From the sequence record OL770073.2: a DNA stretch of 64,000 nt; one strand, written 5' to 3'. This document shows positions 2,475 through 60,320 of the stretch, piece by piece. The notes under the pieces were generated by a model that saw nothing but the letters and a program-made list of their open reading frames with translations, did no database searches and was not told the DNA's origin. Origin of the DNA: Escherichia phage vB_EcoM-RPN226. Position 1 is the stretch's first letter; each line of letters starts with the position of its first letter. The translations under genes were made by a program, and so were the position numbers.

Positions 2475-2966
2475 TTATTCCCAATAATCGAGAGCGAGAG
2501 TTACTTCAAAGGTTTGGATTTCATTGTTTGAATCCCAATCTAATTGAAGTTCACCCACGTTAGTAGGCCACAGACCTTTAATTTCGACTTCTTTTGTTAC
2601 AGTTTTAGCGTCACGAGCATATTGGCGAACAACAGCGCTCTTTTTATACTCTGCTGGTTTTCCACCAGTAATTTCGTTCCCTTGCCCAGCAGCAATGCTT
2701 TGCCAATCAACAAACTTCTGGCGAGCATCATGTGCCTCATCGTTCATTACTGTAACAGTCCAGTCATCGAATGTACGATCGCCTGCTACGTTAATTTTAC
2801 GGTTCATGAATCCGACTGGAATTTTTTCTACAATACCAGCTGGTAAAGCAGTGGCTTTACATTGAAACGTAAAATTTTGTCCAAGATAAGAAATTTCTAC
2901 TTGGAATAAGTTAGGTCGAGCAAAATCACCAGATTCAAACGCTCGTGTTACATCATCTACAAACAT
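2475..2966 (-). CDS. 19: tail tube protein gp19
   Basis: 163 aa, identical length to T4 gp19, located between sheath gene and portal gene. Confidence 0.9.
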   Translation of the reverse strand: MFVDDVTRAFESGDFARPNLFQVEISYLGQNFTFQCKATALPAGIVEKIPVGFMNRKINVAGDRTFDDWTVTVMNDEAHDARQKFVDWQSIAAGQGNEITGGKPAEYKKSAVVRQYARDAKTVTKEVEIKGLWPTNVGELQLDWDSNNEIQTFEVTLALDYWE

Positions 2967-24236: not shown

Positions 24237-24773
24237 TTATGGCCTCTCATACACGTAGCTTCTCAATTTATTAGCCCAACGACTCCAATTTCCAACTATA
24301 GTTTTTGTATAATTTTTAACAAGAGTTTTTCTTATTGGAGCTGGAGGATTCGTTGGTTCAGTAGTATCAGAAGATGACCTAGAATTACTGCCAGAACCTC
24401 CAGATTCACCTTGTTCTTGATAGTCATATATTAATGTTACTTCGTAAGTGAATGTCTTCTGGAGGTTTTGAGGAGCTTTCCATAGATATAACTGAGTATT
24501 AGAATCAGTTGGAAGGTCTTCCCATGAAGCAGCAGTTTTAAATTCATTATCTAAACGATATTTCAACACATCATTTCCAAATCCAAACACAGATTCATAC
24601 GTTCCATATAAACGATTTTCTTCTACTAAAATCCCAGGAGTTTCTTCGTAACTAGTTATATTTATAGATACTAACGTTTCACCTGTTTCTAATTGAGCGG
24701 TAAAGGTGACGTCGATAGAAGAACCTTCCATGGATTCTCCTAAATCAGCGCTCATTGGAAGTATATTAGCCAA
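24237..24773 (-). CDS. 5.1: gp5.1-like protein
   Basis: 178 aa ORF immediately upstream of 5.4; position as T4 5.1. Confidence 0.6.
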
Positions 24774-25632
24774 TTGTTGAATTCTCTAATGATGTAAATT
24801 TATAATCACATTTTTTCAACGCTTTTAAAATTGCGTTATAACTTACATCCGGGAGGTCGTGTTCAATTGCTTTTTCTCTAAACCATTTGTATTTCTGTGG
24901 ATGTGGTTTTCCCAAATCCTCCCAAAGTTTTTTGACTTTTTCTATACTAATCCAAGGTTCAACTGATCTTAGTTTTTTATTTCTAGCATCTAATCTCGAT
25001 TTTCTTATCAAAGGATCATTCCATGATTGTTTCGTTCCTTCTATTTTTCCTGGATGATTGATTAATTTGTTTCTATATTCATCAGATTTCCATAAAGATT
25101 TAACGGTATTAGAAATACGAATTTTTAATGTTGGATCATTTTCAAAAGCAGTTTTCATCGCATTACTCATTTTCTTTCGATATTCTGGCGATGCGCATCT
25201 TTCTTTGTTTATTTTAGATATTTTCTCTGAAAATTCTTTAGTTGACGTTGATTTAGCTAATGCCTTCAATTGAGCTTTCCTATATTCAGGATTAGACCAC
25301 ATTCTCTTCAAATCTTCGGATGAAAAACCATCACCGCCGGATTTTATATTGGTACATAGAATATCAGATGATTTATATTTCGAAATCCAATATCTTTCTC
25401 TTGAATTGAGGATTTCATAAGTAGAAACAAATTCAATTATTTCAAAATCTATTTTATAACCAGGTTTATTACGTATCTTTTTAATATAATCACCGGAACC
25501 TCTATACTTATCATTTTCTAAATCAAAATATCTAGATTCATGTTTACCAATATAAACCCGTACTAATCCTTTCGGATTAGTAACGGTTGTTTTATATATG
25601 TATCTAAATTGAACTGTGTTAGATTTTTTCAT
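24766..25632 (-). CDS. GIY-YIG homing endonuclease with repeated NUMOD3-like DNA-binding motifs (Seg-like)
   Basis: N-terminus FRYIYKTT...VRVYIGKHE resembles a GIY-YIG motif; C-terminal repeats WSNPEYRKAQL / SPEYRKKMS / WKSDEYRNKL / WNDPLIRKSRL are NUMOD3-like. Confidence 0.75.
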   Translation of the reverse strand: MKKSNTVQFRYIYKTTVTNPKGLVRVYIGKHESRYFDLENDKYRGSGDYIKKIRNKPGYKIDFEIIEFVSTYEILNSRERYWISKYKSSDILCTNIKSGGDGFSSEDLKRMWSNPEYRKAQLKALAKSTSTKEFSEKISKINKERCASPEYRKKMSNAMKTAFENDPTLKIRISNTVKSLWKSDEYRNKLINHPGKIEGTKQSWNDPLIRKSRLDARNKKLRSVEPWISIEKVKKLWEDLGKPHPQKYKWFREKAIEHDLPDVSYNAILKALKKCDYKFTSLENSTIG

Positions 25633-25648
25633 AATTCACCTCTGGAAT

Positions 25649-32963: not shown

Positions 32964-33629
32964 ATGTTCCATTACACTTATAAAATAACAAATAAAATTA
33001 ATAATAAAATCTATATAGGCGCTCATTCTACCGAAAATTTAGATGATGGATATATGGGTTCTGGTAAATTATTAAAAAGAGCCCAAGACAAGTATGGTAT
33101 AGAAAATTTCTCTAAAGAAATATTAGAGTTCTTTGACGATAAAACCTCTATGTTTGAGTCAGAAAAGAATATTGTGACTGAAGAGTTTTTAAAGCGCCCT
33201 GATGTTTATAATTTGAAATTAGGTGGTGAAGGTGGTTGGGACCATTTAAACACTAAAGAATATTTGGATAAAAAGAAAGAAGCTTCCTTAAAAGGGGCTG
33301 CTGCTTTTAAAACCAGATTTGAGAACGACCCAGACCTTAAAGAAAAATATCGTAAAATGGGTTCAGAAAGGTTTAAACAGCTTTGGGATAATCCTAAGTA
33401 TAGAGAGAAATTTTTAAATACTAAATCTTTCTTGGGTAAGACCCATACTCCTGAAACTATTAATAAAATGAAAGAATCTCACGCCAAAAATAAACACCAA
33501 CAAGGCGAAAAGAATTCCCAATTTGGTATGATGTGGATTCATTCATTAGATGAAAAAGTTTCTAAACGTATTAAGAAAACTGACCCAATTCCAGAAGGAT
33601 GGTTTAAAGGTCGAAAAATGAAATTTTAA
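32964..33629 (+). CDS. segB: GIY-YIG homing endonuclease SegB
   Basis: 221 aa; GIY-YIG motif YTYKITNKINNKIYIGAHS; located inside the tRNA cluster as T4 segB. Confidence 0.85.
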   Translation: MFHYTYKITNKINNKIYIGAHSTENLDDGYMGSGKLLKRAQDKYGIENFSKEILEFFDDKTSMFESEKNIVTEEFLKRPDVYNLKLGGEGGWDHLNTKEYLDKKKEASLKGAAAFKTRFENDPDLKEKYRKMGSERFKQLWDNPKYREKFLNTKSFLGKTHTPETINKMKESHAKNKHQQGEKNSQFGMMWIHSLDEKVSKRIKKTDPIPEGWFKGRKMKF

Positions 33630-54551: not shown

Positions 54552-55016
54552 TTGATATGGAGATGGGACATGATTACAGTAGATAAGTGGTTTAGAATTA
54601 ATCGTGCTGATAAAGGGCTGTGTAATTATTGGCCGGAACTTAGTGCAGGTACTGTCTTTAAAGTTCGTGAACTTGCAAAAGAATGCGAAGATGATATAGA
54701 ACCTGATACTGGAATTATTGAAATTGAACTTTCTGATGGAAAGATTATTAACATCTACGATAAGCCAATTACGTATTGGTGCTTGTGGAATACTGAATCA
54801 GTAGAAAATGGCGAGATTGAAGAAGTTGTAGAACGAGTTGATCAAGCTATTCATAAACCTAAAGCCGCTTTTCAAGGTGAACGCATTTCATATGCATTAG
54901 CTAAATTAGCTGCGCAAGAAAATAACGATGGTTATGAAGGAAATTTGATGCAAGCTGCGGCAGAATATATTGAATGGCTTGAAACTCAAATTTCTTTTTC
55001 TGACCGAGCGTTTTAA
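54552..55016 (+). CDS. hypothetical protein
   Basis: 154 aa ORF (true start possibly Met-7 at 54570). Confidence 0.5.
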   Translation: MIWRWDMITVDKWFRINRADKGLCNYWPELSAGTVFKVRELAKECEDDIEPDTGIIEIELSDGKIINIYDKPITYWCLWNTESVENGEIEEVVERVDQAIHKPKAAFQGERISYALAKLAAQENNDGYEGNLMQAAAEYIEWLETQISFSDRAF

Positions 55017-55065
55017 TACTTGAAAATAATAAATACCCTTATCTATTCAAGGTAAGGGTTTTATT

Positions 55066-55539
55066 ATGTTATTGACTGGCAAATTGTACAAAGAAGAAAA
55101 ACAAAAATTTTATAATGCACAAAACGGTAAATGCTTAATTTGCCAACGAGAACTAAATCCTGATGTTCAAGCTAATCACCTTGACCATGACCATGAATTA
55201 AATGGACCGAAAGCTGGAAAGGTACGTGGATTGCTATGTAATCTCTGTAATGCTGCAGAAGGTCAAATGAAGCATAAATTCAATCGTTCTGGCTTAAAGG
55301 GACAAGGTGTTGATTATCTTGAATGGCTAGAAAATTTACTTACTTATTTAAAATCCGATTACACCCAAAATAATATTCACCCTAACTTCGTTGGAGATAA
55401 ATCAAAGGAATTTTCTCGTTTAGGAAAAGAGGAAATGATGGCTGAGATGCTTCAAAGAGGATTTGAATATAATGAATCTGACACTAAAACACAATTAATA
55501 GCTTCATTTAAGAAGCAGCTTAGAAAGAGTTTAAAATGA
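55066..55539 (+). CDS. 49: endonuclease VII (Holliday junction resolvase)
   Basis: 157 aa MLLTGKLYKEEKQKFYNAQNGKCLICQREL...; matches T4 gp49 as recalled. Confidence 0.9.
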   Translation: MLLTGKLYKEEKQKFYNAQNGKCLICQRELNPDVQANHLDHDHELNGPKAGKVRGLLCNLCNAAEGQMKHKFNRSGLKGQGVDYLEWLENLLTYLKSDYTQNNIHPNFVGDKSKEFSRLGKEEMMAEMLQRGFEYNESDTKTQLIASFKKQLRKSLK

Positions 55540-56079
55540 CAATTGAAAAAGAAATTGAAGGATTGATTCATAAAACTAATAAAGACCTTTTAAACGAGAA
55601 TGCTAATAAAGATTCTCGTGTTTTTCCAACTCAACGGGACCTTATGGCTGGTATTGTGTCTAAACACATTGCCAAAAATATGGTCCCGTCTTTTATTATG
55701 AAAGCGCATGAAAGCGGAATTATTCATTTCCATGATATTGATTATTCCCCTGCTCTTCCATTTACTAATTGCTGTTTAGTAGATTTAAAAGGAATGCTTG
55801 AGAACGGATTTAAGCTCGGTAATGCACAGATTGAAACTCCTAAATCAATCGGTGTTGCTACTGCAATTATGGCACAAATTACTGCACAGGTTGCTTCCCA
55901 TCAATATGGCGGAACGACTTTTGCGAATGTAGATAAAGTACTTTCTCCTTATGTTAAACGCACCTATGCAAAACATATTGAGGACGCAGAAAAATGGCAA
56001 ATCGCTGATGCGTTGAATTATGCCCAATCTAAAACAGAAAAAGATGTATACGATGCATTCCAAGCTTATGAGTTAACGT
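55536..56079 (+). CDS. nrdD: anaerobic ribonucleoside-triphosphate reductase NrdD, exon 1
   Basis: N-terminal 181 codons of NrdD; exon1+exon2 = 605 aa, the T4 NrdD length; junction inferred from frame, U/G splice rule and 1033-nt intron length. Confidence 0.75.
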
Positions 56080-57112
56080 AAGTCAAGCTCATGTAAAATC
56101 TGCCTAAAACGGGAAACTCTCACTGAGACAATCCGTTGCTAAATCAGCAGTAGCTGTAAATGCCCAACGACTATCCCTGATGAATGTAAGGGAGTAGGGT
56201 CAAGCGACCCGAAACGGCAGACAACTCTAAGAGTTGAAGATATAGTCTGAACTGCATGGTGACATGTAGCTGTTTATCCTCGTATAAATATGAATACGAG
56301 GTGAAACGATGAAATGGAAATTAAGAAAAAGCTTAAAAATTGCCAATTCTGTAGCATTTACCTATATGGTAAGATTTCCTGATAAGTCTTTTTATATAGG
56401 TTTTAAAAAATTCAAAACTATATATGGTAAAGATACAAATTGGAAAGAATACAATTCGTCATCTAAGCTTGTTAAAGAAAAGCTTAAAGATTATAAAGCT
56501 AAGTGGATAATTCTTCAAGTTTTTGATTCTTATGAATCGGCCCTTAAACATGAAGAAATGCTTATTAGGAAATATTTTAATAACGAATTTATTCTTAATA
56601 AATCTATAGGTGGATATAAATTTAACAAATATCCGGATTCAGAAGAACATAAGCAAAAACTTAGTAATGCCCATAAAGGTAAAATCTTATCTTTAAAACA
56701 TAAAGATAAGATACGAGAGAAATTGATTGAGCATTATAAAAATAATAGTAGAAGTGAAGCTCATGTTAAAAATAATATTGGTAGTAGAACGGCTAAAAAG
56801 ACTGTTTCTATAGCTTTAAAATCCGGAAATAAATTTAGAAGTTTTAAATCAGCTGCAAAATTTCTTAAATGCTCTGAAGAACAGGTTAGTAATCATCCAA
56901 ATGTTATAGATATAAAAATAACAATTCATCCCGTCCCAGAATATGTTAAAATAAATGACAATATCTATAAATCATTTGTGGATGCTGCTAAAGATTTAAA
57001 ACTCCACCCAAGTCGTATTAAAGATTTGTGTTTAGATGACAATTATCCAAATTACATTGTTTCATATAAACGGGTAGAGAAGTAGCGAACTCTACTGAAC
57101 ACATTGATGAAG
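56080..57112 (+). other. group I self-splicing intron in nrdD (1033 nt)
   Basis: Non-coding structured flanks (e.g. GGGTCAAGCGACCCGAAACGG...) around an internal ORF; boundaries inferred, not verified by folding. Confidence 0.65.
56309..57085 (+). CDS. intron-encoded endonuclease-like ORF (I-TevIII position)
   Basis: 258 aa ORF wholly inside the nrdD intron; weak GIY-YIG-like N-terminal pattern (FYIGF ... EEMLIRKY); family uncertain. Confidence 0.6.
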   Translation: MKWKLRKSLKIANSVAFTYMVRFPDKSFYIGFKKFKTIYGKDTNWKEYNSSSKLVKEKLKDYKAKWIILQVFDSYESALKHEEMLIRKYFNNEFILNKSIGGYKFNKYPDSEEHKQKLSNAHKGKILSLKHKDKIREKLIEHYKNNSRSEAHVKNNIGSRTAKKTVSIALKSGNKFRSFKSAAKFLKCSEEQVSNHPNVIDIKITIHPVPEYVKINDNIYKSFVDAAKDLKLHPSRIKDLCLDDNYPNYIVSYKRVEK

Positions 57113-58386
57113 TGAACACGTTATTCAGTTCAAATGGACAAACGCCTTTTGTAACAATTACATTTGGTACGGGAACTGACTGGACTGAACGAATGATTCA
57201 GAAAGCAATTCTGAAAAATCGCATTAAAGGTCTTGGTCGTGACGGGATAACTCCTATTTTCCCTAAGCTTGTTATGTTCGTTGAAGAGGGTGTCAATCTT
57301 TATAAAGACGATCCGAACTATGATATTAAGCAGCTTGCTCTAGAGTGTGCAAGTAAAAGAATGTATCCTGATATTATTTCAGCTAAGAACAATAAAGCTA
57401 TCACTGGTTCATCTATTCCTGTTTCTCCAATGGGTTGCCGTAGTTTCTTGGGCGTATGGAAAGATTCGACTGGTAATGAAATTCTTGATGGACGTAATAA
57501 TCTTGGCGTTGTAACACTGAATCTTCCTCGTATTGCATTAGATTCTTATATTGGAACACAGTTCAATGAACAGAAATTTGCCGAATTGTTCAATGAGAGA
57601 ATGGATTTATGTTTTGAAGCATTGATGTGTAGAATTAGTTCATTAAAAGGAGTTAAAGCTACTGTTGCTCCTATTCTTTACCAAGAAGGTGCATTCGGGG
57701 TTCGTCTTAAACCTGATGACGATATAATTGAGTTATTTAAAAACGGTAGAAGTTCAGTGTCCTTAGGATACATTGGTATTCACGAATTGAATATTCTTGT
57801 CGGTCGTGATATTGGACAGGAAATTTTAACTAAAATGAATGCTCGTCTTAAGCAGTGGACTGAAAGAACTGGTTTTGCTTTTAGCTTGTATTCTACACCT
57901 GCTGAAAACCTGTGCTATCGCTTCTGTAAACTTGATACCGAAAAATATGGAAGTGTAAAAGATGTTACTGATAAAGGTTGGTACACTAATAGTTTCCACG
58001 TTTCAGTAGAAGAAAATATTACTCCGTTTGAAAAGATTTCTCGCGAAGCCCCATATCATTTCATTGCGACAGGCGGTCACATTTCTTATGTTGAACTTCC
58101 TGATATGAAAAATAACCTAAAAGGTCTTGAGGCTGTATGGGATTATGCTGCACAACATTTAGATTATTTTGGTGTTAACATGCCAGTAGATAAATGTTTT
58201 ACGTGTGGAAGTACCCATGAAATGACTCCTACTGAAAACGGATTTGTTTGTTCTATTTGTGGAGAAACTGATCCTAAAAAGATGAACACAATAAGAAGAA
58301 CATGCGGATATCTTGGAACTCCTAGCGTTGTTCCATGGAATTTAGGTAAAATGAAAGAAATGGTAAAACGAGTAAAACATGCATAG
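57113..58386 (+). CDS. nrdD: anaerobic ribonucleoside-triphosphate reductase NrdD, exon 2
   Basis: Continues exon 1 frame; C-terminal Cys cluster CFTCGSTHEM...CSICG and glycyl radical region. Confidence 0.75.
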
Positions 58387-59209
58387 GTATTATATAATTT
58401 ATAAAATAACAAATATAATTAATTCAAAGGAATATATCGGTGCGCATAGCACCGATAACATAAATGACGGTTATATGGGGTCAGGAACATTGATTCGTGC
58501 CGCTTTATTAAAATATGGTAGAAAAAATTTTAATAAAGAAATTTTACATGTTTTTGATAATGAAAAACAAATGTATGATAAAGAAGCTGAACTTGTAACC
58601 GAAGAGTATTGTCTAAAAGAAAATACATATAATATTAAACCTGGTGGAAAAGGTGGAACTGCTTATGAACAGACACTTGAACATCGCCACAAAAATAGTT
58701 TAGCAAATAAAGGTAAAAAGAAAACGGCAGAAACTAAAATAGCTATTTCACGTGCTTTAAAGAAATATAAACGTACGCCAGAGCATCAAGCAAATTTAAA
58801 TAAAGCTGTAAGAATAGCTATGAAGCGAAAAGATGTTAGAAGTAAATTAACTGGAGAGCGTTCTGAGAAAGATAAATTATCTATATCAAACGGTGTTAAA
58901 AAATATTACAATTCTTTGAGCGAAGAAGAACGTGAACTGCATCGCAAGCGAATTATTGAAGGTAAAAAGAATTCTCCCATGTCATTGGAATCTAGACAAA
59001 AGCTTTCAAAAGCTTTAAAAGGACTTCAAGTTGGTTCAAAAAATCCAATGTATGGAAAAATTTCTCCAACTAGCAAAACCGTTTCAGTTGACGGTATTAA
59101 ATATGATTCAATTAAAAAGTGCTCAAATGCCATAAAAGTTTCTAGACATCTTATACTAAAACGCTGTAATTCTACTGATGAAGCTTGGAAAAATTGGATA
59201 TTATTATGA
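58379..59209 (+). CDS. GIY-YIG homing endonuclease, SegB paralogue, between nrdD and nrdG
   Basis: YIIYKITNIINSKEYIGAHSTDNINDGYMGSG nearly identical in pattern to SegB N-terminus at 32964; NUMOD-like C-terminal repeats. Confidence 0.8.
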   Translation: MHRYYIIYKITNIINSKEYIGAHSTDNINDGYMGSGTLIRAALLKYGRKNFNKEILHVFDNEKQMYDKEAELVTEEYCLKENTYNIKPGGKGGTAYEQTLEHRHKNSLANKGKKKTAETKIAISRALKKYKRTPEHQANLNKAVRIAMKRKDVRSKLTGERSEKDKLSISNGVKKYYNSLSEEERELHRKRIIEGKKNSPMSLESRQKLSKALKGLQVGSKNPMYGKISPTSKTVSVDGIKYDSIKKCSNAIKVSRHLILKRCNSTDEAWKNWILL

Positions 59210-59676
59210 ATTATGACAGAATATACCCGTGTTGCTTTGTGAATGGCCCTGGATGCAGGACCGTTCTTTTCGTCACAGGTTGTTTGCATAAATGCGAAGG
59301 GTGTTATAATAAATCAACATGGAATGCTAGAAATGGCGTTCCATTCACTGGTGAAACACTAGAACAATTAATTGAATGTTTGAATAATGATTATATAGAA
59401 GGATTAACTATAACTGGAGGAGACCCTCTCTATCCTGATAACCGAGATGTTGTTCATTGCATCGTTCAAACAGTAAAAAATCTTTATCCGAATAAAAGCA
59501 TTTGGTTGTGGACAGGATATAAGTTTGAAGATATTAAACAACTAGAAATGCTTAAATATGTTGATGTTATTATTGATGGGAAGTATGAGAAAAATCTTCC
59601 GACCAAAAAGCTGTGGCGAGGATCAGATAATCAGCGACTTTGGTCAAATACCGACGGGGTGTGGAAACATGATTAA
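59206..59676 (+). CDS. nrdG: anaerobic RNR activating protein (radical SAM)
   Basis: Start at MNYDRIYP gives 156 aa as T4 NrdG; Cys cluster CLHKCEGCYN. Confidence 0.85.
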   Translation: MNYDRIYPCCFVNGPGCRTVLFVTGCLHKCEGCYNKSTWNARNGVPFTGETLEQLIECLNNDYIEGLTITGGDPLYPDNRDVVHCIVQTVKNLYPNKSIWLWTGYKFEDIKQLEMLKYVDVIIDGKYEKNLPTKKLWRGSDNQRLWSNTDGVWKHD

Positions 59677-59790
59677 ATTGAATTATATTATGGACACTAT
59701 AAATGATATGATTTTTCATTTTGGTCCAGAATTTTATTCGCAGTATAGTTTAGTGCTTATCAATGCTTGGTTAATCAATTAAGGGTAAAT

Positions 59791-60006
59791 ATGTATAAAT
59801 TTCGTAAAGGTTTAGCTGATTTTCTTACAACTGTAACGTTCTTTTTGTTTATGGCAGTTGGAGCTATTTTCCTTATTCCTTTTATTGCTATATTTTTCGT
59901 GATTAGCTTAATTTCTCCAGAAAAAGGCTTATCTTCTAGCGAGTTTAATGAGCGTCTGGATAAAATTACTAACAAACTGAATGCTGTTCTTGATAAAAAG
60001 GCTTAA
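59791..60006 (+). CDS. small membrane protein
   Basis: ATG at 59791; single long hydrophobic helix. Confidence 0.5.
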   Translation: MYKFRKGLADFLTTVTFFLFMAVGAIFLIPFIAIFFVISLISPEKGLSSSEFNERLDKITNKLNAVLDKKA

Positions 60007-60008
60007 TT

Positions 60009-60320
60009 ATGATTAGTTTTGAGCAGTACGTGGTAGAGAGTTGGAAGGGTTTTGATATGTTCGGTAATGACTATTATTTCTATGAATGTAGTCTAAATCC
60101 TAGTTTTTGGGCTGGACGAGAACGAGAACTTGAAGAAATTAATAACCGTGCTGAATTGTTAGGTGAATTACCTACGGTTTATTTTACCTTTGATGCATCT
60201 GGATTTGTTATCCAGGTTTATTTTCCTGAAGAAAATTCTGGCGATGATTCTGTTAACCCGCCATACTGGGCTTATCAAGGAATTATTTCTCGTGGAACAA
60301 AACTCGAACTTAAAGAATAA
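60009..60320 (+). CDS. hypothetical protein
   Basis: 103 aa ORF. Confidence 0.5.
   Translation: MISFEQYVVESWKGFDMFGNDYYFYECSLNPSFWAGRERELEEINNRAELLGELPTVYFTFDASGFVIQVYFPEENSGDDSVNPPYWAYQGIISRGTKLELKE

Follow-up and report, generated by a model that had tools for sequence, protein, structure and literature searches.

A segH-type homing endonuclease gene between nrdD and nrdG in Escherichia phage vB_EcoM-RPN226

The open reading frame lying between nrdD and nrdG in Escherichia phage vB_EcoM-RPN226 (sequence record OL770073.2) is, with high confidence, orthologous to segH of the T6-type T-even phages, which encodes a free-standing homing endonuclease of the GIY-YIG type. The gene found here is already known, having been named, with a literature, from phage T6 and its relatives. 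The outcome is therefore a correct annotation, in which the gene name should be segH, and has little significance beyond that. Positions refer to the 64,000-nt stretch of phage DNA that was analysed (the window), and the features discussed are listed in Table 1.

Table 1. Positions and supporting evidence of features in the window
Feature	Position	Strand	Basis
segB-like gene in tRNA cluster, between tRNA-Met and tRNA-Arg	32964..33629	+	186/221 aa identical to T4 SegB
nrdD exon 1	55536..56073	+	ORF listing and alignment to intronless T6 nrdD
nrdD group I intron, 1033 nt	56074..57106 (±2 nt)	+	Rfam RF00028 and T6 alignment
I-TevII ORF in nrdD intron	56309..57085	+	258/258 aa identical to T4 I-TevII
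nrdD exon 2	57107..58386	+	Pfam NRDD (E 3.9e-122) and Gly_radical; boundaries from alignment to intronless T6 nrdD
segH-linked recoded nrdD 3' end	58318..58386	+	NrdD tail TPSVVPWNLGKMKEMVKRVKHA and stop, right after glycyl-radical motif RTCGYLG
segH, free-standing GIY-YIG homing endonuclease gene (probable orthologue)	58379..59209	+	ATG ORF, 276 aa and stop
N-terminal GIY-YIG catalytic domain, aa 1-95	58379..58663	+	IIY (6-8), YIG (19-21), K/R40, E69, N85
Helical linker with NUMOD3-like repeats, aa ~96-225	58664..59053	+	Pfam NUMOD3 and AF2 helices
C-terminal I-TevI-type DNA-binding domain (predicted), aa ~226-276	59054..59206	+	Pfam, profile, Foldseek
nrdG (activase)	59206..59676	+	Pfam Fer4_12 (E 2.7e-48) and Radical_SAM; N-terminus MNYDRIY

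Identity and placement of the gene

The predicted protein was identical to T6 SegH (ABI48947.1, in AY262137.2) at 270 of 276 residues (97.8%), and tblastn to AY262137.2 returned the same identity with an E-value of 1e-172. AY262137.2 is entitled 'Enterobacteria phage T6 NrdD, SegH, NrdG' and has segH, a homing endonuclease, annotated between nrdD and nrdG. None of the six differences from the T6 protein (A42S, A117E, E118K, R145S, T158V and T231S) fell on a column that was invariant in an alignment of 37 homologues. A megablast search with positions 57900-59700 against the phage collection recovered the whole stretch at 97–98% nucleotide identity in 69 records. The same gene is annotated as segH in T6 (MH550421), PP01, SYGD1 and F2, is called segD in records of the RB3 group, and is hypothetical in many others; the gene layout in T6 MH550421 is that of the window. 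The name segH is said to come from Sandegren, Nord and Sjöberg (NAR 2005, 33:6203), who reportedly described a GIY-YIG gene standing where other phages have mobC, of the HNH family, in the interval separating nrdD from nrdG, and who are also said to have reported endonuclease activity and homing of SegH. The same placement, with SegH taking the position of T4 mobC in this interval, is given in a passage of a preprint (bioRxiv 10.1101/2022.08.31.505936).

The initial annotation had proposed a Seg-type GIY-YIG gene inserted between nrdD and nrdG, and had quoted the N-terminus of its product. The ORF is real and placed as described, on the plus strand with an ATG start and 276 codons before the stop, and both the identity with T6 SegH and the domain build agree with the class proposed. 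In the flanking genes, Pfam matches extended over 57112..58383 (NRDD and Gly_radical) and 59206..59673 (Fer4_12 and Radical_SAM). The exon-2 frame of nrdD closes with TAG at 58384-58386 and segH starts at 58379, so that the two genes overlap by 8 nt, as had been claimed. At its other end segH stops with TGA at 59207-59209, which shares an ATGA with the nrdG ATG at 59206 and gives an overlap of 4 nt. The second overlap that had been claimed concerns the start of an extended nrdG ORF, of which the TTG at 59185 is only the mechanical boundary. The ATG at 59206 opens MNYDRIY, the N-terminus common to T4, T2 and T6, and is almost certainly the true nrdG start.

Signals for separate expression of segH were searched for in its surroundings. 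Neither the late-promoter sequence TATAAATA nor a full MotA box was present in 57900-59400. A search for sigma-70-like sites gave a single one, at 59283 inside nrdG, and none ahead of segH or within it. RNA structure at the segH start was not significant (z = -0.06), and the segH ATG has only a weak GAG six nt upstream. Since neither promoter-like signals nor start-region structure were found, segH looks like a promoter-less cassette carried on the operon message, with translation probably coupled to that of nrdD. Several T4 seg and mob genes have been described in the same way (review PMC2988022). At 58435-58457 there is a 9-bp palindrome that T6 shares exactly; it is not conserved in the relative found in phage EC-W2 (see below), and was treated as incidental.

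A second homing endonuclease gene is present in the same operon, the ORF of the nrdD intron being I-TevII, and the proposal of two mobile endonuclease genes in the anaerobic RNR operon was borne out. The intron was recognized by Rfam RF00028 (103 bits, 56038..56269) and is 99.9% identical to the T4 intron at the nucleotide level, against about 96% for the exons. The exact T4-type intron occurs in only 24 records and, among the records examined, was accompanied by segH only in EC128 and fPS-2. In most phages that combine an intron with segH, N2 for instance, the intron is of another allele (66% nucleotide identity), the endonuclease of which is 56% identical to I-TevII. The pairing of a T4-type intron with segH is uncommon but already in the databases.

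Protein architecture and relation to other Seg proteins

The protein was assigned to phrog_314 ('homing endonuclease') with an E-value of 2.5e-59. A Pfam match to NUMOD3 (PF07460) was found at aa 200-228 (26.8 bits, above the cut-off of 20.4), and a second repeat resembling S/TxExRxKxS lies at aa 99. The I-TevI_DNA-bd family (PF20987) matched aa 226-273 with an E-value of 7.6e-4, under its cut-off. SegE_GIY-YIG scored 18.6 bits where 25 are required, TIGR01453, a group I intron endonuclease family, reached 46.1 bits (E 5.7e-12), short of its cut-off of 56.05, and PF01541 gave no match for SegH in the Pfam scan, though both it and PF19835 occur in close homologues. When 5.8 billion proteins were searched, a compact SegH cluster was obtained with members at 98% and 90% identity, the 90% one being named SegH in Salmonella phage KM16. 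Beyond this cluster there was one relative at 47%, followed by hundreds of proteins alike in the N-terminal third only.

Members of the GIY-YIG superfamily have a metal-binding Glu (E75 of I-TevI), a conserved Asn (N90) and a catalytic Arg in the first helix (R27 of I-TevI), and are recognized by GIY and YIG motifs 10–11 residues apart on two beta strands. The corresponding motifs in SegH, I-I-Y8 and Y19-I-G21, have this spacing and lie on AF2 strands 4-12 and 18-25. The residues invariant in the 37-homologue alignment were Y8, Y19, G21, H23, T25, D30, Y32, G34-S35-G36, E69 and N85, which include the conserved catalytic Tyr, Tyr, Glu and Asn, and in a profile alignment E69 and N85 were aligned with the E75 region and the YN of I-TevI. 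Position 40, located in the first helix (aa 37-46), is R in this protein; of the 37 homologues, 21 have K there, 10 have R and 6 have another residue. In the HMM alignment I-TevI R27 falls opposite an insertion and is not paired with position 40, and the canonical arginine had no invariant counterpart among the 37 homologues.

Structural relatives were sought in the PDB. A single-sequence phmmer search returned noise only (E 0.4 or worse), so the link to I-TevI was reached only by way of a profile and an AlphaFold (AF2) model. The profile of the 37-homologue alignment matched only 1MK0, 1LN0 and 1I3J, all of them I-TevI, with E-values of 0.017-0.026 for the catalytic domain (1MK0/1LN0) and 0.11 for the DNA-binding domain (1I3J). 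The AF2 model had a mean pLDDT of 84, with 93–98 across the first 90 residues, and comprised a beta-beta-alpha-beta-alpha N-terminal domain, six linker helices over aa 100-214 and a small C-terminal alpha/beta unit. Foldseek searches with this model were led by the same three entries (probability 0.99–1.00, followed by a sharp drop), the best being 1MK0 (probability 1.00, TM 0.64 on the target, E only 5e-3), with 1I3J_A at probability 1.00 and an E-value of 0.012. The predicted build is thus I-TevI-like, with an N-terminal GIY-YIG domain, NUMOD3-like repeats and a putative I-TevI-type DNA-binding domain at the C-terminus.

The initial annotation had called the gene SegB-paralogous, on the basis of an N-terminus much like that of the SegB-like protein encoded in the tRNA cluster. 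In its specific form this would mean that, in this phage lineage, a duplicate of the tRNA-cluster endonuclease had come to lie in the anaerobic RNR operon, which is given almost no credence here. The two window proteins are certainly related: in a BLASTP alignment spanning 223 aa (E 6e-34) they share 35% identity and a near-identical N-terminal motif, with about 62% of the first 60 residues identical (hand count on the BLASTP alignment), and no other protein of the window matches SegH better than the SegB-like one. When the window was searched with a degenerate DNA pattern coding for GAHSTD/E, only these two loci were matched, with nothing in shuffled sequences, and the similarity, as judged from the sequences, is far above chance. 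The likeness of the N-termini claimed initially is therefore real, but it is not specific to SegB, as the motif Y..T..YIG.H.T...D.YMGSG, which includes the residues quoted, is invariant in all 37 aligned members of the subfamily. When SegH was searched against all T4 ORFs, identity over the first 95 residues, with the full-length E-value in parentheses, was 56% for SegD (9e-33), 54% for SegB (2e-29), 53% for SegC (7e-32), 52% for SegA (4e-23) and 50% for SegE (6e-27). The catalytic domain is thus equidistant from all five, and by the full-length E-values SegD and SegC outrank SegB. Residues 96-276, searched in the same way, gave weak matches to SegC, MobE, SegD and I-TevI by way of NUMOD3 and C-terminal modules, and no match to T4 SegB; the full alignment of the two window proteins, which had been suggested as a check, was likewise mostly confined to the catalytic domain. 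In addition, a 47%-identical relative lies downstream of nrdD in a phage of a different genus, which indicates an old SegH lineage with a lasting tie to this locus. The pairwise figures point against SegH and SegB as sister groups, and what stands of the paralogy is a generic kinship within the family, with SegA to SegE equally close and the C-terminal half unrelated to SegB.

Occupancy of the junction and the recoded NrdD tail

The state of the nrdD/nrdG junction in other phages was examined with a synthetic empty-site query in which 300 nt of nrdD were joined to 300 nt of nrdG. A single unbroken match of 608 nt was obtained in about 563 of the 794 records, T2 included, so relatives with an uninterrupted junction, which had been proposed as a check, do exist. 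In T2 the nrdD TGA overlaps the nrdG ATG (ATGA) and there is no insert. SegH orthologues (at least 90% amino acid identity) were found in about 72 records and mobC orthologues in about 32, and the flanks are collinear. Phage PD112 has kept the ends of segH and has lost about 590 bp in frame between two AATATG repeats; in SHFML-11 a segH-type nrdD end is joined to a T4-type mobC at a shared 9-nt sequence, ATGCATAGG. In the Pseudotevenvirus EC-W2 the 47%-identical Seg gene lies directly downstream of nrdD, with nrdG 2.7 kb away. Presence/absence polymorphism, a linked flank and decayed copies are, at the level of sequence comparison, signs of a free-standing homing element. The five states of the junction (empty, segH, mobC, deleted segH and segH/mobC recombinant) illustrate competition between homing endonucleases for one site, and the locus also shows RNR genes as hot spots for selfish DNA.

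The end of nrdD differs according to what follows it. Exon 2 is about 95% identical to that of T2, T4 and T6 over most of its length; among segH-bearing genomes its last ~70 nt do not differ, whereas their identity to T2 and T4 drops to 64%, and the last 85 nt have 34 mismatches to T2. The recoded stretch comprises 23 codons with 12 amino acid changes, the tail of T2 and T4 NrdD being NPNERGFNLGKNKEIMHRVKHQ, and it is 100% identical in T6, EC128 and PD112. A tail of the segH type, at a threshold of at least 95% identity, was found in 80 phage records, compared with the 72 that have an intact segH, and the next best tail was at 78.6%, which ties the tail strictly to segH or what is left of it. 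A search for a donor lineage returned no phage record with this tail that lacked both segH and a remnant. A variant of the nrdG 5' end was considered as a further part of the segH haplotype and was rejected, as it also occurs in U5 (empty junction) and SHFML-11 (mobC).

The following course of events would be consistent with these features. segH would be transcribed within the 49-nrdD-nrdG message and translated at a low level, coupled to the termination of nrdD through the 8-nt overlap and the weak GAG. In a mixed infection, the C-terminal domain and the NUMOD3 linker would bind an extended, degenerate site close to where nrdD meets nrdG, and the tethered GIY-YIG domain would cut to produce a staggered double-strand break. 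Recombination-dependent repair from the segH+ genome would then copy segH and its flanks into the recipient (homing, with localised marker exclusion), and the recoded last 23 codons of nrdD would move with segH as part of the converted tract. From sequence we infer where this allele would cut, how strongly it would be expressed and that it would home.

Two other readings bear on the function of the insert. In one of these segH would be a domesticated or inactive remnant, kept only for the context and spacing of the nrdG translation start and for the end of nrdD, and this is considered highly improbable. Its start and stop do overlap neighbours in an essential operon, and degenerate derivatives exist, as in the in-frame deletion of PD112. 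T4 mobC contains promoters for downstream genes (review PMC2988022), which indicates that such cassettes can become load-bearing. However, the ORF is full-length with all subfamily-invariant residues intact, the six positions at which it differs from the T6 protein are all non-conserved, and there is no promoter-like element inside segH. Moreover, the insert is not needed, since the 563 records without it use a simple nrdD/nrdG ATGA overlap. The other reading, which is doubtful yet clearly less remote, is that the mobile unit is larger than the ORF and consists of segH together with a functional NrdD tail, with the break possibly dragging along the intron and I-TevII, or the reverse. The tail could provide target-site immunity against SegH or against the competing MobC, or could be part of the SegH recognition site; it may also be a donor-derived co-conversion tract and nothing more. 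If it is an immunity determinant, a small mechanistic point would follow on how free-standing endonucleases coexist with essential host genes. In this phage a SegH break would lie 1.3 kb from the nrdD intron and might carry the intron and I-TevII with it, or the converse might happen, by analogy with the trans-homing of I-TevIII promoted by mobE. A free-standing homing endonuclease gene, orthologous to T6 segH, is the reading preferred here.

Comparison with known systems

I-TevI, encoded in the td intron of T4 and represented by 1MK0, 1LN0 and 1I3J, has the same bipartite build as SegH, in which a flexible linker joins the GIY-YIG domain at the N-terminus to a DNA-binding domain at the C-terminus. 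It differs in being intron-encoded and is about 25% identical to SegH, the linker of which is longer and rich in NUMOD3. SegH also has the Seg-subfamily loop H23-x-T25...D30-x-Y32-x-GSG where I-TevI has the helix bearing R27. T4 SegA to SegE are closer, belonging to the same GIY-YIG subfamily (phrog_314) with 50–56% identity in the catalytic domain and the same free-standing lifestyle, but they differ in insertion locus and in the C-terminal DNA-binding region, and SegH is longer by ~55 residues.

MobC of T4 occupies the same gap, its insertion site being listed as nrdG/nrdD in Table 1 of review PMC2988022, and its activity was given as not determined in that 2010 review. It is likewise the product of a free-standing, homing endonuclease-like gene that overlaps both neighbours, but it belongs to an unrelated catalytic family (HNH) and has 210 aa. 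The N-terminus of MobC is supplied by a duplicated nrdG start (MNYDRIY), and the nrdD tail next to it keeps its T2-type form. The closest known system is T6 SegH, which agrees in locus, in length (276 aa), in the overlaps of 8 nt and 4 nt and in the nrdD tail; it differs in that the T6 nrdD is intronless, whereas nrdD of the window phage contains a T4-type intron with I-TevII.

Endonuclease genes and inserts outside the nrdD/nrdG junction

The homing endonuclease genes of the window have had very different histories, since 35 of 221 residues separate the SegB-like protein from T4 SegB and I-TevII, encoded in the nrdD group I intron, is 100% identical to its T4 counterpart. The intron itself shows 99.9% identity to that of T4 against ~96% for the flanking exons, and the exact intron was found in only 24 phage records; this contrast, together with the small number of records, is the signature of recent horizontal transfer of the intron by homing. 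The third Seg-like ORF of the window has SegF as its top T4 match, at only 32%, and its location is not that of T4 segC, which is placed between genes 5.1 and 5.3. The ORF thus encodes another Seg and occupies another site than segC, which the window appears to lack.

Around the anaerobic operon, the extra ORF between the 55.8-like gene and nrdH is present in EC128 and PD112 and not in T6, T2 or T4. The counterpart of window 55000..60000 is ~800 bp longer in phages fPS-2 (LR215722.1), Lv5cm (MZ150757.1) and F26 (OP870145.1), and three homing endonuclease genes are annotated there in fPS-2, indicating a third insert in some relatives.

Features in the window and at related loci (L004, PD112; L008, SHFML-11)
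Feature	Coordinates	Strand	Description
Third Seg-like ORF	24769..25635	-	GIY-YIG; phrog_314, E 9e-26; between genes 5 and 5.1
SegB-like gene	32964..33629		
nrdD intron	56074..57106		
Palindrome in segH	58435..58457		TATCGGTGC GCATA GCACCGATA; perfect 9 bp, 5-nt loop; -15 kcal/mol as RNA
Extra ORF	60009..60320		103 aa, within ~300 bp between 55.8-like gene and nrdH
Decayed segH, PD112 (MH837626.1)	L004 ~2501..2740		In-frame deletion of ~590 bp between AATATG repeats
Endonuclease swap, SHFML-11 (NC_030953.1)	L008 2720..3620		segH-type NrdD tail, then mobC 99% identical to T4 mobC

Variants and annotation of the junction

In PD112, the remnant of segH, the free-standing GIY-YIG gene between nrdD and nrdG, is a mini-ORF of ~80 codons, unannotated and with both E69 and N85 missing, and nrdG is annotated with a late start. 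The SHFML-11 junction is a natural swap of endonucleases; the record gives a truncated nrdG. In KM606994-KM606999 (RB3, RB5, RB6, RB7, RB9 and RB10), the same gene as segH is labelled 'segD', which looks like a naming error inherited via similarity to T4 SegD.

The start of segH and the crossover point

The palindrome covers the YIGAHSTD codons of segH; the T6 copy is identical, and the palindrome is not conserved in the relative from EC-W2. The opening 9 nt of segH, ATGCATAGG (58379..58387), encode Met-His-Arg and are the same 9 nt as the in-frame Met-His-Arg codons located 15 nt upstream of the nrdD stop in the T2/T4-type tail (T2 locus L005, ~2784..2792). In SHFML-11, the crossover from segH-type to T4-type sequence falls exactly on this 9-mer. 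The opening of T4 mobC, the HNH gene filling the same gap, is likewise a duplicate, in that case of the nrdG start (MNYDRIY).
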